IMG/VR virus record: IMGVR_UViG_3300043786_001086
Reading direction: 5' to 3' (one strand)
Length of the DNA stretch: 64,000 nt
Source of the DNA: a virus
Lineage: Duplodnaviria > Caudoviricetes
The notes beneath the pieces were generated by a model, which did not search any database, was not told where the DNA came from, and worked only from the letters and a program-made list of their open reading frames with translations. Below, one piece after another: positions 19,412 through 52,251 of this stretch (the first letter of the stretch is position 1; each line of letters opens with the position of its first letter). Made by a program: the position numbers and the translations under genes.

Positions 19412-19438
19412 AACCCATCTTAAAAAGGTGGGTTTTTT
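19412..19438 (+). terminator. Intrinsic terminator
   Basis: AACCCATCT-TAAAA-AGGTGGGTT followed by a T-run. Confidence 0.8.
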
Positions 19439-19493
19439 GTTTTATAAAAATTACCTTTTGATAGGACAGGACTATTTATAATAAAATATTATT

Positions 19494-20399
19494 ATGGATA
19501 GTAAAATTGAAAAACAAATTATATCAGAATATAAAAATGGTAAAAGTAATATTGAAATTGTAAAAATTGTTGGTCTATCAAAACCAACAATTCTTAAAGT
19601 CCTAAATAAACATAATCTAATTAGAAAAAGAGATAGGTGTTTAAGTTTAAATATTAAAAAAGATGGGGACAGATATTATGTTTTAAGGAAATGCCCAATG
19701 TGTAAAAATGATGTGAAAACGTCCTCTAAAGATAAAACAATTGCCTGTAGAAATCATTTCAACATAATTAATAGCAATTCATTGTGTAGAATTTGCATGG
19801 GTAAAAATAATACAGGAGAAGGTAACCCGTTTTATGGTAAAAAACACACAAAAAAAACAAAGAAACAAATATCAAAAAATAGGAAAGGTAAAGCAATTGG
19901 GGACAAAAATAGTATGTCTAATATAATATGGAGAAAAAAAGCCAAGGATAATCTAAAAAAAAAGTGGGATAGTGGTGAATTAGATCATCTAAAACCTTTC
20001 TTTTCAGATTTAATGAAAAAAACGATAAGTCAAAAAAAAATTAAATCAGTAGTTAGGTCAAAAAAAGAAACAGAAATTATAGATCAAATTGAAAAAATGG
20101 GGTATTCTACTCAACATTCTTATATGGTTGAGTCAAAAATTTGTGATATTTACATACCTTCTTTAAATTTGATAATAGAATACAACGGAGACTATTGGCA
20201 TTGTAATCCAAAAAAATACGAAGCAAATTATTACAATCAAAAAAAACAGAAATTTGCAAAAGAGTTATGGGAATATGATAAAAATAAAGTTGATTTAATA
20301 TTAAAAAAGGGTTATAATTTAGAAGTGGTATGGGAATCAGATTTAAAAAATGACCATACTATAATAAATAAACTAATAAAAAAATATGACAAAAAATAA
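19494..20399 (+). mobile_element. Free-standing homing endonuclease: HTH, Zn-finger-like CxxC pairs, NUMOD3, C-terminal Vsr/DUF559-like PD-(D/E)xK nuclease
   Basis: CPMC and CRIC; GNPFYGKKHTKKTKKQIS (NUMOD3); DIYIPSLNLIIEYNGDYWH catalytic motif. Stop overlaps the start of the next gene. Confidence 0.8.
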
Positions 20400-21630
20400 C
20401 CCCGTGAATGGTCGTGAGAGAATCAAAATATTGGTTCTCCCAAGTGACAAGTCCGGGGTTGGCTGAGGTAAATTTCGTTCAGTCGACCCCCACATCAAAC
20501 TTCAAAATCTTTATCCCAACGATTTTCATGTTGATATTGATTACGAACCAAGAATCAATGACATCAATTATTGGAAAAATTATCAAATTGTTCATTTCCA
20601 TAGAAGTTTTGGAAACATTGATCAATGTCCTCAAATTATTAAGAGTTTAAAAAGTCTTGGTCTTATTGTAATTGCCGATCTTGATGATTATTGGTTACCA
20701 ACAAAAGAACACCCAATTCATCAATTAATAATTGAAAGTAAGTTAAACACGAAAATTATCGAAAACTTAAAAGTTGCCGATTACGTGACAACAACAACCG
20801 AAATATTTGCAAATGAAATTAGAAAGTTTAATAAAAACGTAATTGTTCTTCCAAACGCAATCGATCCAAAAGAACCCCAATTTAATCAACCAACACCCCC
20901 ATCAGATAAAATTAGAGTTGGGTGGTTAGGAGGATCTTCACACTTACATGACTTGAAGTTATTGGATAACATGGTCAATAAATTAAGTTCTGTTCAAGAC
21001 AAATTACAATACTATGTTTGTGGTTTTGATATTAGAGGAAGTGTTACTGAAATTAACAAACAAACTGGCGAACAAACTCAAAGACCGATCAAACCGCAAG
21101 AAACAGTTTGGGTAAAATATGAACAAATTTTTACAAACAACTACAATATAATTTCACCTGAATATAAAATCTTTTTAGATAAATTTGAAGATAAACCATT
21201 CGAAGGTGTTGAAAAAGAAAATTATGTTAGGGTTTGGACCCGTCCTGTAGATCAATACGCAAGAAACTACTCTAACTTTGATATTTCGTTGGCACCAATT
21301 AAAAACCATATCTTTAATAGAATGAAATCTCAATTAAAAGTTATTGAGGCAGGATTTTACAAAAAAGCTTTAATTGCATCAAATGTGGGCCCATATACTA
21401 TAGATTTGAAACACGCAATTAAGAACGGTCAATTTACAGATGGAAATGCTCTTTTGGTTGATGAAGTTAGAAATCATAGCGATTGGTCAAAATGGATTAA
21501 AAAATTAGTTGATAATCCAAACATGATTACCGATCTTGGTGAAAGACTTTACGAAACCGTAAAAGATAAATATGACCTTAATGTGGTCACTAAAACAAGA
21601 GCAGACTTTTATAAATCTTTAATTAAATAA
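20386..21630 (+). CDS. GT-B (GT4-like) glycosyltransferase with one in-frame TGA at codon 27; recoded or pseudogene
   Basis: ATG 20386: MTKNNPVNGRERIKILVLPSDKSGVG*GKFRSVDPHIKLQ...IADLDDYW...ADYVTTTT, continuous with track ORF 20785..21630 (GWLGGSSHLHDL, DISLAP, FNRMKSQLKVIEAG). Confidence 0.8.
20455..20490 (+). other. GC-rich mRNA hairpin containing the in-frame stop; candidate recoding (bypass) signal
   Basis: GGGGUUGGCUGA pairs fully with UCAGUCGACCCC (12 bp, two G-U), 12-nt loop; UGA at 20464-20466 flanked by Gly codons GGC and GGU. Confidence 0.7.
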
Positions 21631-32975: not shown

Positions 32976-33782
32976 ATGACAACAAAAAACCAAATATCAG
33001 TAATTCTTCCTATCAAAACAGGAAAAACTTTAGCCTTCACAGACTTTTTTGAAAAATGCATTCAGTCTGTAAGATACCAAGACGAATATTTAAAAGAATT
33101 AATTATCGTCCATGGAAATGAAGATTATTTGAACTCGTATTTGTATGAGTATGATTTCAGTGGTCTGACCGTGACCTTAGAACCATGGACAAGTAAACCC
33201 AACTTTTCAAAACAAGTAAACCATGGGGTTAGTATCGCAAACTCTAATTGGTGTTCAATTTTAGAATTTGACGACGAATATTCAAACATTTGGTTCAAAA
33301 ATGTTTCTAAATATATTGATATTTATAATGATGTAGATGCTTTTCTACCTATTGTTGTAGATGTTGATGATAAGTTAGTTTTTGCGGGTTTTACAAATGA
33401 AGCGACTTTTGCTGCGAATGTCTCATCAGAGATGGGTATTTTAACAAATGAAACTTTGCAAGGATTTCAAAACTTTCAAATTTCGGGTATGGTATTCAAT
33501 AAAGAAAAGTATCAAGAAGTTGGTGGTTTGAAATCAAATATGAAGTTGACTTTTGGTTATGAACTATTTTTAAGATTGACATATAACTCGGCAAAAATTA
33601 TGACAATCCCTAAAATAGGTTATAAACATACAAATTTGAGAGAGGGGTCGATCTTTTGGAACTATAAAAATGGTGAAAACAAAATAACTCAAGATGAGGC
33701 TAAATTTTGGATTGATTCGGCTAAAAAAGAATATTTCTACACCAGCGAAAGAGAAATAAAATATGAACCCCAAGAAGTTTGA
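32976..33782 (+). CDS. GT2-family glycosyltransferase-like protein
   Basis: ISVILP, NHGV, SILEFDDEY, LRLTYN, GYKH. Confidence 0.75.
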   Translation: MTTKNQISVILPIKTGKTLAFTDFFEKCIQSVRYQDEYLKELIIVHGNEDYLNSYLYEYDFSGLTVTLEPWTSKPNFSKQVNHGVSIANSNWCSILEFDDEYSNIWFKNVSKYIDIYNDVDAFLPIVVDVDDKLVFAGFTNEATFAANVSSEMGILTNETLQGFQNFQISGMVFNKEKYQEVGGLKSNMKLTFGYELFLRLTYNSAKIMTIPKIGYKHTNLREGSIFWNYKNGENKITQDEAKFWIDSAKKEYFYTSEREIKYEPQEV

Positions 33783-49482: not shown

Positions 49483-52251
49483 TTAATCACCTAAAAGTTT
49501 TGATAATTCATCGGTTACCTCACCTAAAGTGTTATTAACTTTTTGAAAATCTAAAAATTCGTCTTCATCAAAATCATCAATTTCTGATTCTAATATGAGT
49601 TTGTTTTTATCCTTTCTTATTGATTCAGGAATTGGGGGTGCTCCTCCTTCTTCTCCTCCCGCTGGTGGTGGAGGTGGTGCTCCTCCTTCTCCTCCCGCTG
49701 GTGGAGCGGCAGCTCCTCCTGCAGATGCAGTTCCTCCAGTTACGGTTTTGTATAATCTATCAACCGTATCAAAAATACCTGTTTTTGTAATAATAGTTGC
49801 CGTATTATCAAGTTCAGCGGCAACTGCTCGTTCCATTCTGATTTGGTTAAGTTCGACTTTGATTTCATCATCAGAAAAACCAAAAATATGTTTTTTCGCC
49901 CATGTTGCTGAAGTAGGCTGAATTGATTTAGCAATTTCAGACACCATATCTTTATATAATATCACCTTTTCTTTCCAAACGTCAATCATTAATAAATCTG
50001 CTTGTTTAGATGGGTTTGTAAGTTGTAACGTAAAGTTTGATAACTCATCCTCAAATCCCATAAGAAATAAGTGAATGATTGCAATTTTATTCATCTCAGC
50101 AATTGCCGATTTTTGAATTCTATTGATTGTTCTTGCAAAACGAATATCCAATAGTGATAAGTTTTTACCATCACCTACAGGTTCCTCAAAACCTAAATAC
50201 GCTTTAGGAATACGAAGTGCTGTAACCAATTTCTTTTGGATATACTCAATATCTGCGATTTCTGAAAGGTTAGTTGCTCCCGGTAATGTCTCAATTGGAC
50301 TTGCTTGAGCGGCGTCTCTTACAGGAATAAAATAATCTTGATCCACTGCCATTTGGTTAAATCTTAAATCCACATTTCCTGTTTTTCTATCAACAATTTG
50401 ATCTCTTTTAAATTTGTTTGCAACTCTTTGAACATATGGCTCAACATCTTTGTCATCCATGTTACCAACGAAAACTTTGAAAACTCTCCTTTCGGGTGCT
50501 CTTGATGTTCTATAGATTAACATCGCATCTTCAGACAATACTAATTGTTTCCAAATACGACGAGCCTTTTCTAACATTGATGTTCCATAAGGAAGTTTTC
50601 TATCATCACCCAACAATCTAAAGTGGGCAACCTCCCAAGTATTAAATTCGGCTTCCCTTGCTTTCCACGCAAATTTCAAGGCCTTTCTATTAACATTAAT
50701 TGTCGCGTTATATGTTCTTGAATCAATACCTCTTTCTAATCTTTCGATTTCGATGTTTGGTAATTGAAGGCATCCTGTAACCCCTTTTTCAGGGTCTAAT
50801 TTCAGATAAACAAAATTATCACCATATTTACACATGTTTCTAATCCACATCGGTAAATTAGTGTTTATGTCTAATGTATTAACAAATAAATCAACTAAAA
50901 TACTTTTGATTCTTTTTGATTCAGAATATACTTGTAAAATATAACCATTTTGATCTGGGGTAGTTGATTCTTCAGCGTATATGTCAAGTGCGGTTGAGAT
51001 TTCGGGAGTGTTATGTGAAAAAATTGAGTCTGTAGCAAAATTTTTATATCCAGGAACAGTCAAATCATAAACAGGCACAACACCATGAGGTTCAATTGAT
51101 ACTATTTTATGGTTTAAGTTAATTATATCTTTTTTTGCTTTAGCTGTTGAGTATGGTGATTTCTGTATTCCGTATGCGGTTAAAAAAGTTCCCCAATCTT
51201 GATATCCATTTGAAACGATTTCTCTTTGTAACTTTCGGTAAGATACATTTAATTGTTTAGCGGTTCCCTTCAAGGTTTTTATTTTTCTTGCAGTTTCAAT
51301 AATGTTATCCCAACCTATTTTTATGTAAGCTGGATTTTTATCACCACTTCGTCTTCCACCCCAAACTAATTTACCCTTTCTTTTTGCGACTTCAGACATT
51401 TTGTTTCTATAATCAGGATTAGACCATAATTTTTCGTTATTTAGTCTTGCATGATATGCTCTGTGTTCAGATATCTTCATTATTTGTAGGTTTTCAGGTA
51501 AATTATTTTTACCATCAAAATCAATATGATGCACTTCCTCGTCTTCGTTTACTTTAACATCATAAAACCATTCAGCAACTAAATTGTGTTCTGAAACCCA
51601 ACCATTATGACCCTCTACAGAATTACAAGTGTAAACCCAATTATATTTCTTGTTATTATAAAAAGATTTACGATAAAATGGCATCATTGAATCTCCAGGC
51701 TTTAAATTCATAACCCGTTCAAATGAACCATCTCTTTTCATAAATTGGTGTTCCCATGTTGCAATAATATGACTACCGTCATCAAACGTGACTTTATATG
51801 TCATTTCATCTCTAGTATAATGGGCGTTTCTAGCTACTGCGGGAACTACTTTTTTAAGGTTATGATCATATGCATAAGTAATAAATTCATAATCCCTACC
51901 TTTTTCCGATAACTCTTTAATTGTGATAAAACCGTTCGGGGTTGCAATTTTAGTATCTCCCGCCAAACAATATTCCATTGATTCGTAATCGTAAAACGCC
52001 GCCAATCTTGTTGGTTCATAATAAACCGCTTGGGTATATAAATTGTTTTCAACTTTCGCCCAATTGGTGCTTAGATATAAAGATTGTTGATTTTGGAGTT
52101 TTGCCCTTTCATACTCAGCTTTATCTTGAGTTTTTAAAATTTCTTTTTTATCTAGTTTGTAGTCTGGTCTTCCTTGACCTAAGGTGCTATCAGGACCAAA
52201 AGTCTTGGAAAGTTTTTGCCAAACTGTTAGATTTTGATTGTTATTTTCCAT
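49483..52251 (-). CDS. gp20: Portal protein, T4 gp20-like, containing an intein
   Basis: YESME|TPEI..ALDIYAEE, RL...YGTSMLE.ARRIWKQL.L.EDAMLIYR.SRAPERRVF, DYFIPVR, LPG..NL.EIADI.Y..KKL..AL.IP. Confidence 0.95.
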   Translation of the reverse strand: MENNNQNLTVWQKLSKTFGPDSTLGQGRPDYKLDKKEILKTQDKAEYERAKLQNQQSLYLSTNWAKVENNLYTQAVYYEPTRLAAFYDYESMEYCLAGDTKIATPNGFITIKELSEKGRDYEFITYAYDHNLKKVVPAVARNAHYTRDEMTYKVTFDDGSHIIATWEHQFMKRDGSFERVMNLKPGDSMMPFYRKSFYNNKKYNWVYTCNSVEGHNGWVSEHNLVAEWFYDVKVNEDEEVHHIDFDGKNNLPENLQIMKISEHRAYHARLNNEKLWSNPDYRNKMSEVAKRKGKLVWGGRRSGDKNPAYIKIGWDNIIETARKIKTLKGTAKQLNVSYRKLQREIVSNGYQDWGTFLTAYGIQKSPYSTAKAKKDIINLNHKIVSIEPHGVVPVYDLTVPGYKNFATDSIFSHNTPEISTALDIYAEESTTPDQNGYILQVYSESKRIKSILVDLFVNTLDINTNLPMWIRNMCKYGDNFVYLKLDPEKGVTGCLQLPNIEIERLERGIDSRTYNATINVNRKALKFAWKAREAEFNTWEVAHFRLLGDDRKLPYGTSMLEKARRIWKQLVLSEDAMLIYRTSRAPERRVFKVFVGNMDDKDVEPYVQRVANKFKRDQIVDRKTGNVDLRFNQMAVDQDYFIPVRDAAQASPIETLPGATNLSEIADIEYIQKKLVTALRIPKAYLGFEEPVGDGKNLSLLDIRFARTINRIQKSAIAEMNKIAIIHLFLMGFEDELSNFTLQLTNPSKQADLLMIDVWKEKVILYKDMVSEIAKSIQPTSATWAKKHIFGFSDDEIKVELNQIRMERAVAAELDNTATIITKTGIFDTVDRLYKTVTGGTASAGGAAAPPAGGEGGAPPPPPAGGEEGGAPPIPESIRKDKNKLILESEIDDFDEDEFLDFQKVNNTLGEVTDELSKLLGD
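51010..51969 (-). mobile_element. 320-aa intein with HNH homing endonuclease domain
   Basis: Starts CLAGDTKIATPNG (Cys codon 51967-51969); block B TWEHQF; HNH VHHIDFDGKNNLPENL; ends VYDLTV...NFAT..IFSHN (Asn codon 51010-51012); +1 residue Thr. Confidence 0.95.

Follow-up and report, generated by a model that had tools for sequence, protein, structure and literature searches.

Programmed ribosomal bypassing in bacteria and phages is, to our knowledge, known only from gene 60 of bacteriophage T4 and its homologues. The locus described here lies in a stretch of 64,000 nucleotides (nt) recorded as IMG/VR virus IMGVR_UViG_3300043786_001086, the whole of which is referred to as the window. The window derives from a tailed phage in lake water, and at about 19439–20490 on its plus strand (as for all coordinates below unless stated) it carries what is, close to certainly, a mobile cassette of a homing endonuclease in which a stop-containing gap is conserved. 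The cassette interrupts a gene for a GT4-like glycosyltransferase (GT), and comparison of its alleles suggests that ribosomes probably bypass the gap.

The system most similar to this locus is T4 gene 60 with its endonuclease MobA (Huang 1988; Bonocora 2011; Manning & Atkins, bioRxiv 10.1101/2022.08.31.505936). In both cases a stop stands directly after a Gly take-off codon, the landing codon matches the take-off codon and changes together with it among relatives (from Gly to Asp in the T4 type, from Gly to Ser in the GT cassettes), and the gap lies in a highly conserved motif near an endonuclease gene. In both, an N-terminal extension borne by the endonuclease element precedes the take-off codon, where in T4 it encodes the nascent-peptide signal of gene 60. 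The two also share a decay series, in which the endonuclease is lost while the gap is kept, and then the gap is lost while the extension is kept. The GT cassette is nevertheless not homologous. Its gap is 2–10 nt and variable in length between relatives, as against 50 nt; its target is a GT4-like glycosyltransferase and not topoisomerase II; and its endonuclease, encoded upstream, belongs to the Vsr-like and not the HNH class. A take-off stem-loop is not conserved across all the GT cassettes. Since the gene, the gap length and the class of endonuclease all differ, and the GT gene is unsplit, the locus is not a member of the gene 60/MobA family.

Two further systems offer partial likenesses. 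Synthetic stop-hops in E. coli (Weiss, Dunn, Atkins & Gesteland 1987; PMC5009743) also place matched codons on either side of a stop, so that 9 nt yield one amino acid, and the +5 and +6 hops described (PMC5009743) include exactly the geometry of GGC UGA GGU; those constructs are engineered and of low efficiency, whereas the GT cassettes form a natural, conserved and mobile family. Atkins et al. 2016 (PMC5009743) knew of no natural in-frame stop hops and wrote that shorter counterparts of gene 60 had "long been presumed". We found no published report of a natural short stop-hop, the later literature searched adding only gene 60 homologues and a candidate from a Streptomyces phage. The mitochondrial 'byps' of Magnusiomyces capitatus (Lang 2014; Nosek 2015) are, like the GT gaps, short mobile inserts in conserved genes that are bypassed from one matched codon to the other, wobble differences being tolerated; they differ in being GC-cluster-like mitochondrial inserts of 27–55 nt, with an unassigned sense codon after take-off and no endonuclease gene.

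Against this background the GT locus represents a natural and non-homologous family, in which the gaps form an allelic series (+5 to +13 nt), the take-off codon specifies either of two amino acids, the stop is of either of two kinds, and a hairpin is present in some forms and absent from others. Such a series is a ready-made mutational panel for the minimal requirements of a ribosomal hop. If the bypass is real, it would be a natural short stop-hop. As a second, independent link between homing endonucleases and bypassing, it would support untranslated gaps as a general form of target-site immunity.

A stop codon within a conserved glycosyltransferase motif

The window has a GC content of 31%, encodes a major head protein, portal and large terminase, and contains no tRNA genes; no close cultured relative of the phage was found. 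A preliminary description of the locus, made from the window alone, had proposed that the GT gene starts at ATG 20386 and contains one in-frame TGA. This holds: the frame is open from 20386 to the TAA at 21628–21630 except for the TGA at 20464–20466, in the context GGG GTT GGC TGA GGT AAA TTT CGT. The first in-frame ATG, GTG or TTG after the TGA is the GTG at 20785, leaving no start before codon 134. On the basis of the frame and of the start segments of 60 gapped loci, a first GT segment of 26 codons runs from the ATG to the proposed take-off codon (MTKNNPVNGRERIKILVLPSDKSGVG; 20386–20463), which is GGC encoding Gly26 (20461–20463). The proposed untranslated gap is the TGA itself, and the proposed landing codon is GGT (20467–20469), no frame offering an earlier GGN triplet downstream of take-off. 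The second segment (20470–21630; 386 codons and the TAA), recognised by homology and a structure model, resumes at KFRSVDPH. An open reading frame (ORF) for the endonuclease (19494–20399) ends with a TAA 14 nt inside the GT gene, an overlap already remarked upon in the preliminary description.

The TGA at 20464–20466 is neither an error nor a change of genetic code. Corroboration in sequence data, which the preliminary description had advised, came from contigs of three lake runs (2016, 2020 and 2024) that span 20200–20800, carry the TGA and are identical to the window with zero differences. The stretch is present in 17 DNA runs, the source sample possibly among these, and stronger support than the window's own runs is given by the same TGA in many independently assembled contigs of relatives. 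A further run labelled RNA-Seq (X18) is probably DNA, providing a single 208-nt contig, and was not used as RNA evidence. TGA is a true stop elsewhere in the window, as had been stated, terminating ORFs at 33782 and 38609; among the 52 ORFs of at least 150 amino acids the stops are TAA (34), TGA (9) and TAG (9). Stop reassignment, a suppressor tRNA and selenocysteine insertion are not supported at this single site. None of readthrough, code change or selenocysteine insertion can explain those gaps described below whose length is not a multiple of three, or the use of TAA besides TGA.

Database proteins reading GVGWGKFRS were considered as genuine alleles with an additional Trp-Gly and rejected, being gene-caller artefacts in which the TGA had been translated as Trp. 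In P0007, P0009, P0010, P0012, P0013, P0015, P0016 and L081:766-1992 the gap TGA was called as Trp under code 4 and the start placed at an internal Met; other gene callers would split the gapped genes, and the cassettes are systematically mis-annotated. The practical lesson for metagenomes is that genes with such gaps are either split or mistranslated.

Homologous loci were gathered with three seeds, namely the GT, the endonuclease and a distant GT subfamily. Those that could be parsed (213 loci) provided 137 distinct sequences around the site, of which 104 are insert-less and read GV[G/S][K/Y/F][F/Y]RS. The other 33, from more than 40 metagenomes, are interrupted at exactly the same codon by gaps of 16 forms. 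Examples with Gly codons are GGC tga GGT, GGT taa GGC, GGT taaccaaca GGT, GGC tgaatttaaa GGA and GGC tgaatta GGT, and with Ser codons AGC tgacta AGC, AGC tgaca AGC, AGC tgaa AGC and AGT tg AGC. TGA or TAA stands immediately 3' of the take-off codon in all 16 forms, and in 15 the landing codon belongs to the same codon box as the take-off codon, with no earlier triplet of that box downstream in any frame. The flanking codons co-vary as GGN/GGN or AGY/AGY, both being AGY where the native residue is Ser, and Gly pairs and Ser pairs are both found within one endonuclease clade.

Removing the gap together with one matched codon restores the native motif in every one of the 16 forms; the hops implied are of +5 (as in L111), +6, +7 (L128), +8 (L123), +9 (L110), +10 (L121), +12 (L056) and +13 nt (L092), and their predicted products are the motifs GVGKFRS, GVGYFRS, GVSYFRS, GVSFFRS and GVSKFRS of insert-less relatives. 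Gaps of 2, 4, 5, 7 and 10 nt shift the frame, and there the downstream ORF follows the landing codon; in every gapped allele the ORF in the landing frame is intact (378–779 codons). No extra residues occur at the site in the 104 distinct insert-less alleles or in about 110 insert-less database proteins. Thus the expectation that homologues lacking the cassette read SGVGKFRS with zero additional residues was borne out, and the product predicted for the 6-nt hop from GGC to GGU proposed for the window has the spacing of the family, matching the insert-less motif.

Several observations indicate that the interrupted genes are under purifying selection. When gapped alleles are compared with their nearest insert-less sisters, the ratio of non-synonymous to synonymous polymorphism (pN/pS) is 0.04–0.12, the same as in insert-less control pairs. 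None of the 33 distinct gapped alleles (0/33) has a second lesion in the GT over 378–779 codons. In the GT codons that the cassette itself carries, on both sides of the gap, the protein is conserved while synonymous sites are near saturation, in a comparison that spans cassettes whose endonucleases share only 40–69% identity. Pairwise ratios of non-synonymous to synonymous substitution (dN/dS) among gapped alleles are 0.07–0.2, and were set aside as proof of function after insertion since this signal could predate each insertion; they were replaced by the sister pairs and the cassette-borne codons because the GT tree shows repeated gain and loss of the cassette. Relaxed selection downstream of the stop, which the preliminary description had held would count against its proposal, is seen neither in dN/dS nor in the controlled sister-pair comparison.

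Mobility of the cassette

Among GT-seeded loci, 24 of 27 gapped alleles have an endonuclease gene or its remnant upstream, compared to three of 129 insert-less alleles (Fisher p = 7e-22, phylogeny ignored), in agreement with the earlier proposal that insert and endonuclease occur together. The endonuclease is wholly lost in three gapped alleles, and two lineages retain the extension where endonuclease and gap are both gone. The GT tree has gapped alleles in scattered places, every one next to an insert-less sister that is nearly identical, and requires at least seven changes. Within these sister pairs similarity breaks down 15–30 nt past the gap, at the same 3' boundary.

The limits of the cassette in the window are given by locus L243, an empty-site allele of essentially the same phage whose flanks on either side are about 98% identical to those in the window. 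The two sequences part after the T-run of a terminator at 19438 and match again from CAC 20491, which defines an element of about 1,052 nt (approximately 19439–20490). Besides the endonuclease gene, this element supplies a new start for the GT and a recoded version of the 5' end of the GT gene, the gap included. The new start adds an extension of nine residues (20386–20412) beyond the native one, at which the native allele begins MSKINVLV. Recoding affects both sides of the gap (20422–20493): compared to L243, the 22 GT codons flanking it include 15 that are synonymous but different, five that are identical and two that are changed, and the recoded stretch takes in both arms of the hairpin considered below. 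A candidate sigma-70-like promoter within the cassette, TTGATA/TATAAT near 19458–19482, was set aside, its spacer being just 13 nt by eye. Contigs of insert-less GT alleles are found in the same lake samples, their similarity to the window ending exactly at the landing codon (20467), and potential homing targets therefore coexist with the cassette.

These are the features of a free-standing cassette, that is, presence/absence polymorphism at a fixed site, co-converted flanks and a scattered distribution. In the endonuclease tree the gap lies at the base of a large and old clade, within which its length has changed repeatedly and without regard to triplets. Such changes would be tolerable only if codon matching sets the frame after the gap.

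Some alleles possess the endonuclease without the gap (L007, L022/L129, L077, L099-L103, L105-L109, L117, L118 and L126), and in these the extension is absent also. In 11 of the 13 distinct alleles of this kind the residue before the sequence PSD is unusual (T, A, I or C), VLVTPSD being the commonest form, whereas T or A at that position occurs in 0 of 91 endonuclease-free natives. The unusual residue may represent a second way of making the target site immune, with the hint of a recognition site that reaches about 25 nt upstream of the gap.

A predicted stop-hop and its alternatives

The sole single mechanism that fits all 16 gap variants is that ribosomes bypass the gap, and on the strength of the allele comparison, which supports the stop-hop inferred in the preliminary description, we consider this the probable explanation. 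The cassette has replaced the start of the phage GT gene, bringing the endonuclease gene, a longer GT start, synonymously recoded first GT codons and, in the window, a 3-nt gap (TGA), proposed to be untranslated, inside the conserved GVGKFRS motif. As we envisage it, a ribosome arriving at GGC (Gly26) would hold the slowly decoded stop in its A site; the peptidyl-tRNA-Gly would un-pair, the mRNA would move by 6 nt, and the tRNA would re-pair with GGU, with decoding resuming at AAA to yield the native SGVGKFRS protein. The gap would at the same time break the target of the nuclease and so render the carrier genome immune, by analogy with T4 mobA and gene 60.

Two features shared by all or most gapped alleles are candidate stimulators. 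The first is a nascent peptide of 26–28 residues, lengthened by the N-terminal extension, which may promote the hop: all 60 gapped loci have 26–28 codons before the take-off codon, compared to 17–18 in the start segment of natives and 17–20 in ungapped alleles that bear the endonuclease, and a Pro 18 residues before take-off is invariant across gapped alleles. The second is a Shine-Dalgarno-like GGGG tract, at 20455–20458 in the window. GGGG or GGAG stands 2 nt before take-off in 31 of 33 gapped alleles versus 39 of 91 natives (Fisher p = 1e-7, shared ancestry ignored), and the first Gly codon of the motif is GGG in 25 of 33 versus 11 of 91. In the +1 frameshift of prfB, which encodes RF2, a Shine-Dalgarno-like G-run likewise precedes the P-site codon by 2–3 nt while UGA occupies the A site, an arrangement that the GT cassettes share. 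In prfB the P-site tRNA re-pairs on an overlapping codon (+1); in the GT cassettes +1 re-pairing is impossible and the frame after the event varies. GGC and AGC, both take-off codons, are used less in the window than any of their synonyms, each at 3%.

The preliminary description had emphasised a hairpin with the TGA in its 5' arm. The hairpin is real and is made of rare codons (GGC 3%, GGG 10%, GTC 9% and CCC 7% in the window), with 13 bp between 20455–20467 and 20478–20490, a loop at 20468–20477, the take-off codon and stop in the 5' arm, and a folding energy of -21.7 kcal/mol (z = -4.2, 0 of 200 shuffles as good). It is conserved, however, only in the cassette type of the window, TGA/GTCGACCCC, and shows no covariation: within the TGA type there are no compensatory pairs, only one-sided changes of G-C to G-U or A-U to G-U. 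At 13 bp it is too large to re-form in the A site. In other types small AGCU/AGCU or GUUGG/CCAAC hairpins are present in some, and none was seen in the TAA +6 types. Since compensatory changes are lacking and other types do not have it, the hairpin is not used as support for a general mechanism. In Ser-type gaps (L123, L110 and L128) the codon and the U that follows it form AGCU at both take-off and landing; this sequence being self-complementary, the two copies (AGCU/AGCU) could pair as a mini-hairpin of 4–5 bp, bringing the two codons together.

Several points weigh against a bypass. No RNA structure common to all gap types was found. The efficiency of synthetic stop-hops in E. coli is reportedly about 1%, and termination at TAA is efficient, so that the yield of the hop could be very low. 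In one form, AGT taa GGC of L113 (L113:3432-3527), the codons do not match and pairing would require a G-U at the first position, and two others land on GGA after GGC or GGT, a wobble mismatch for tRNA-Gly(GCC). Finally, the gap variants share ancestry and their counts are not independent events. Skipping the L113 gap would still yield GVSKFRS, a motif of native alleles, and L113 belongs to the clade that holds both Gly/Gly and Ser/Ser pairs; it may be an evolutionary intermediate or a crippled allele.

A more ambitious proposal, which we advance tentatively and at slightly less than even odds, is that the cassettes are 'translational introns'. The endonuclease would carry a compact bypass device, consisting of a fixed-length N-terminal nascent-peptide extension, a Shine-Dalgarno-like G-run, a stop and a matched landing codon, that allows efficient hops of 5–13 nt without the elaborate signals of gene 60. 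The cassettes would then represent a widespread third way, besides introns and inteins, for selfish nucleases to occupy conserved motifs.

The most serious competitor to the bypass is that the cassette is simply selfish and the gene dead, the GT being truncated after 26 residues, carriers being GT-null, and the intact downstream frames reflecting recent invasion and frequent recombination. In its favour, the mobility of the cassette is plain, and a nearly identical insert-less sister exists for most gapped alleles, so that much GT divergence predates each invasion; insert-less alleles share the same lakes, and many phage GTs are accessory. We regard this as unlikely, because it leaves unexplained why the gaps start with a stop and end at a matched landing codon, why the codons shift together from Gly to Ser, and why the cassette-borne GT codons conserve their protein at near-saturated synonymous sites. 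The lack of second lesions and the control-like pN/pS also speak against it.

Somewhat less credible is a mixture of conventional recoding events, with stop readthrough at triplet gaps (adding 2–4 residues, Trp-Gly in the window) and +1 or -1 frameshifting at the others. UGA readthrough by tRNA-Trp and stop-stimulated +1 frameshifting of the prfB type are established, and the GGGG tract 2 nt before take-off would suit the latter. Three different mechanisms would nevertheless be required at one site across sister cassettes. UAA as well as UGA would have to be read through, a slippery heptamer is absent, and GGC-U and AGC-U offer no potential for +1 re-pairing. Readthrough would also insert its 2–4 residues into the first turn of helix alpha1, in a motif of invariant length in the 104 distinct natives, and the matched landing codons would serve no need.

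Non-covalent association of the 26–28-residue peptide with a separately initiated C-terminal protein, in the manner of NrdA or T4 gp39/gp60, is improbable. Genes split by endonucleases, with added tails that restore function, are known; in the +6 types a Shine-Dalgarno-like tract precedes the landing codon by 8 nt, and some +1-frame variants happen to contain a TTG in the downstream frame. Most variants, however, have no start codon between the stop and the motif (all +6, +9 and +12 forms; L123, L128 and L185), the window has no in-frame ATG, GTG or TTG before codon 134, and the break would cut within the beta1-loop-alpha1 unit. Removal of the gap before translation, by RNA micro-splicing or editing or at the DNA level in a subpopulation, is very improbable: no known mechanism excises 2–10 nt, no gap-less DNA contig of the same allele appears in the runs examined, and the site lacks intron or intein features. 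Assembly or sequencing error, or TGA as a sense codon, can be dismissed in spite of the gene callers that rendered TGA as Trp, given the identical contigs from three years, dozens of independent assemblies, the TAA variants, TGA and TAA ending nine and 34 of the 52 long ORFs, and the absence of tRNA genes from the window.

The encoded proteins and other mobile elements

The product of the interrupted gene is a GT4-like glycosyltransferase with a GT-B fold, as judged from a predicted structure. A search of PDB with the native sequence found no match and the Pfam Glyco_trans_1_4 match falls below the cut-off; a fold search was used in place of the former. The AlphaFold2 model of a native allele has a mean predicted local distance difference test score (pLDDT) of 88.6 and a predicted template modelling score (pTM) of 0.87, and its best fold matches are MshA, PimB', BshA and PglA (E 1e-10 to 1e-11). 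In this model the gap site falls just past strand beta1, in the opening turn of helix alpha1.

The ORF at 19494–20399 (301 amino acids) is a free-standing homing endonuclease. It comprises an N-terminal helix-turn-helix, a Zn finger and NUMOD3, the latter two being DNA-binding modules of the I-TevI kind, and a C-terminal Vsr-like nuclease. NUMOD3 is recognised in Pfam at 31.7 bits (cut-off 20.4), the PHROG matches are homing endonuclease families, and the Zn-finger and NUMOD3 stretch resembles the I-TevI DNA-binding domain (PDB 1i3j; E = 0.01); the Pfam match to MTES_1575 is only weak. In the AlphaFold2 model (pLDDT 86) the C-terminal domain superposes on the catalytic domain of I-Bth0305I (3r3p; template modelling score by target 0.76) and on Vsr (1vsr; 0.60). 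Residues D218, E229, D233 and H236 are invariant among 27 homologues. The model thus suggests a Vsr fold with conserved acidic and His catalytic residues, as in the PD-(D/E)xK type of I-Bth0305I and other Vsr-like (EDxHD) homing endonucleases; the window enzyme differs in being free-standing and not intron-encoded, and sequence identity is about 20%.

The GT gene is host to two kinds of mobile element. Alleles of about 770–779 amino acids (L174:1528-3867; also L110, L111, L114, L123, L128 and duplicates) contain an apparent intein with its own endonuclease domain, which sits in the GWLGG|S motif (the bar marking the insertion point), begins C...TPDT and ends ...GNS; the window allele has no intein. 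Elsewhere in the window, a 921-amino-acid portal ORF on the minus strand (49483–52251) matches HNH-endonuclease PHROGs at about residues 36–371 and portal families at 413–812, and may represent either a fusion protein or a core gene invaded by a further mobile element.

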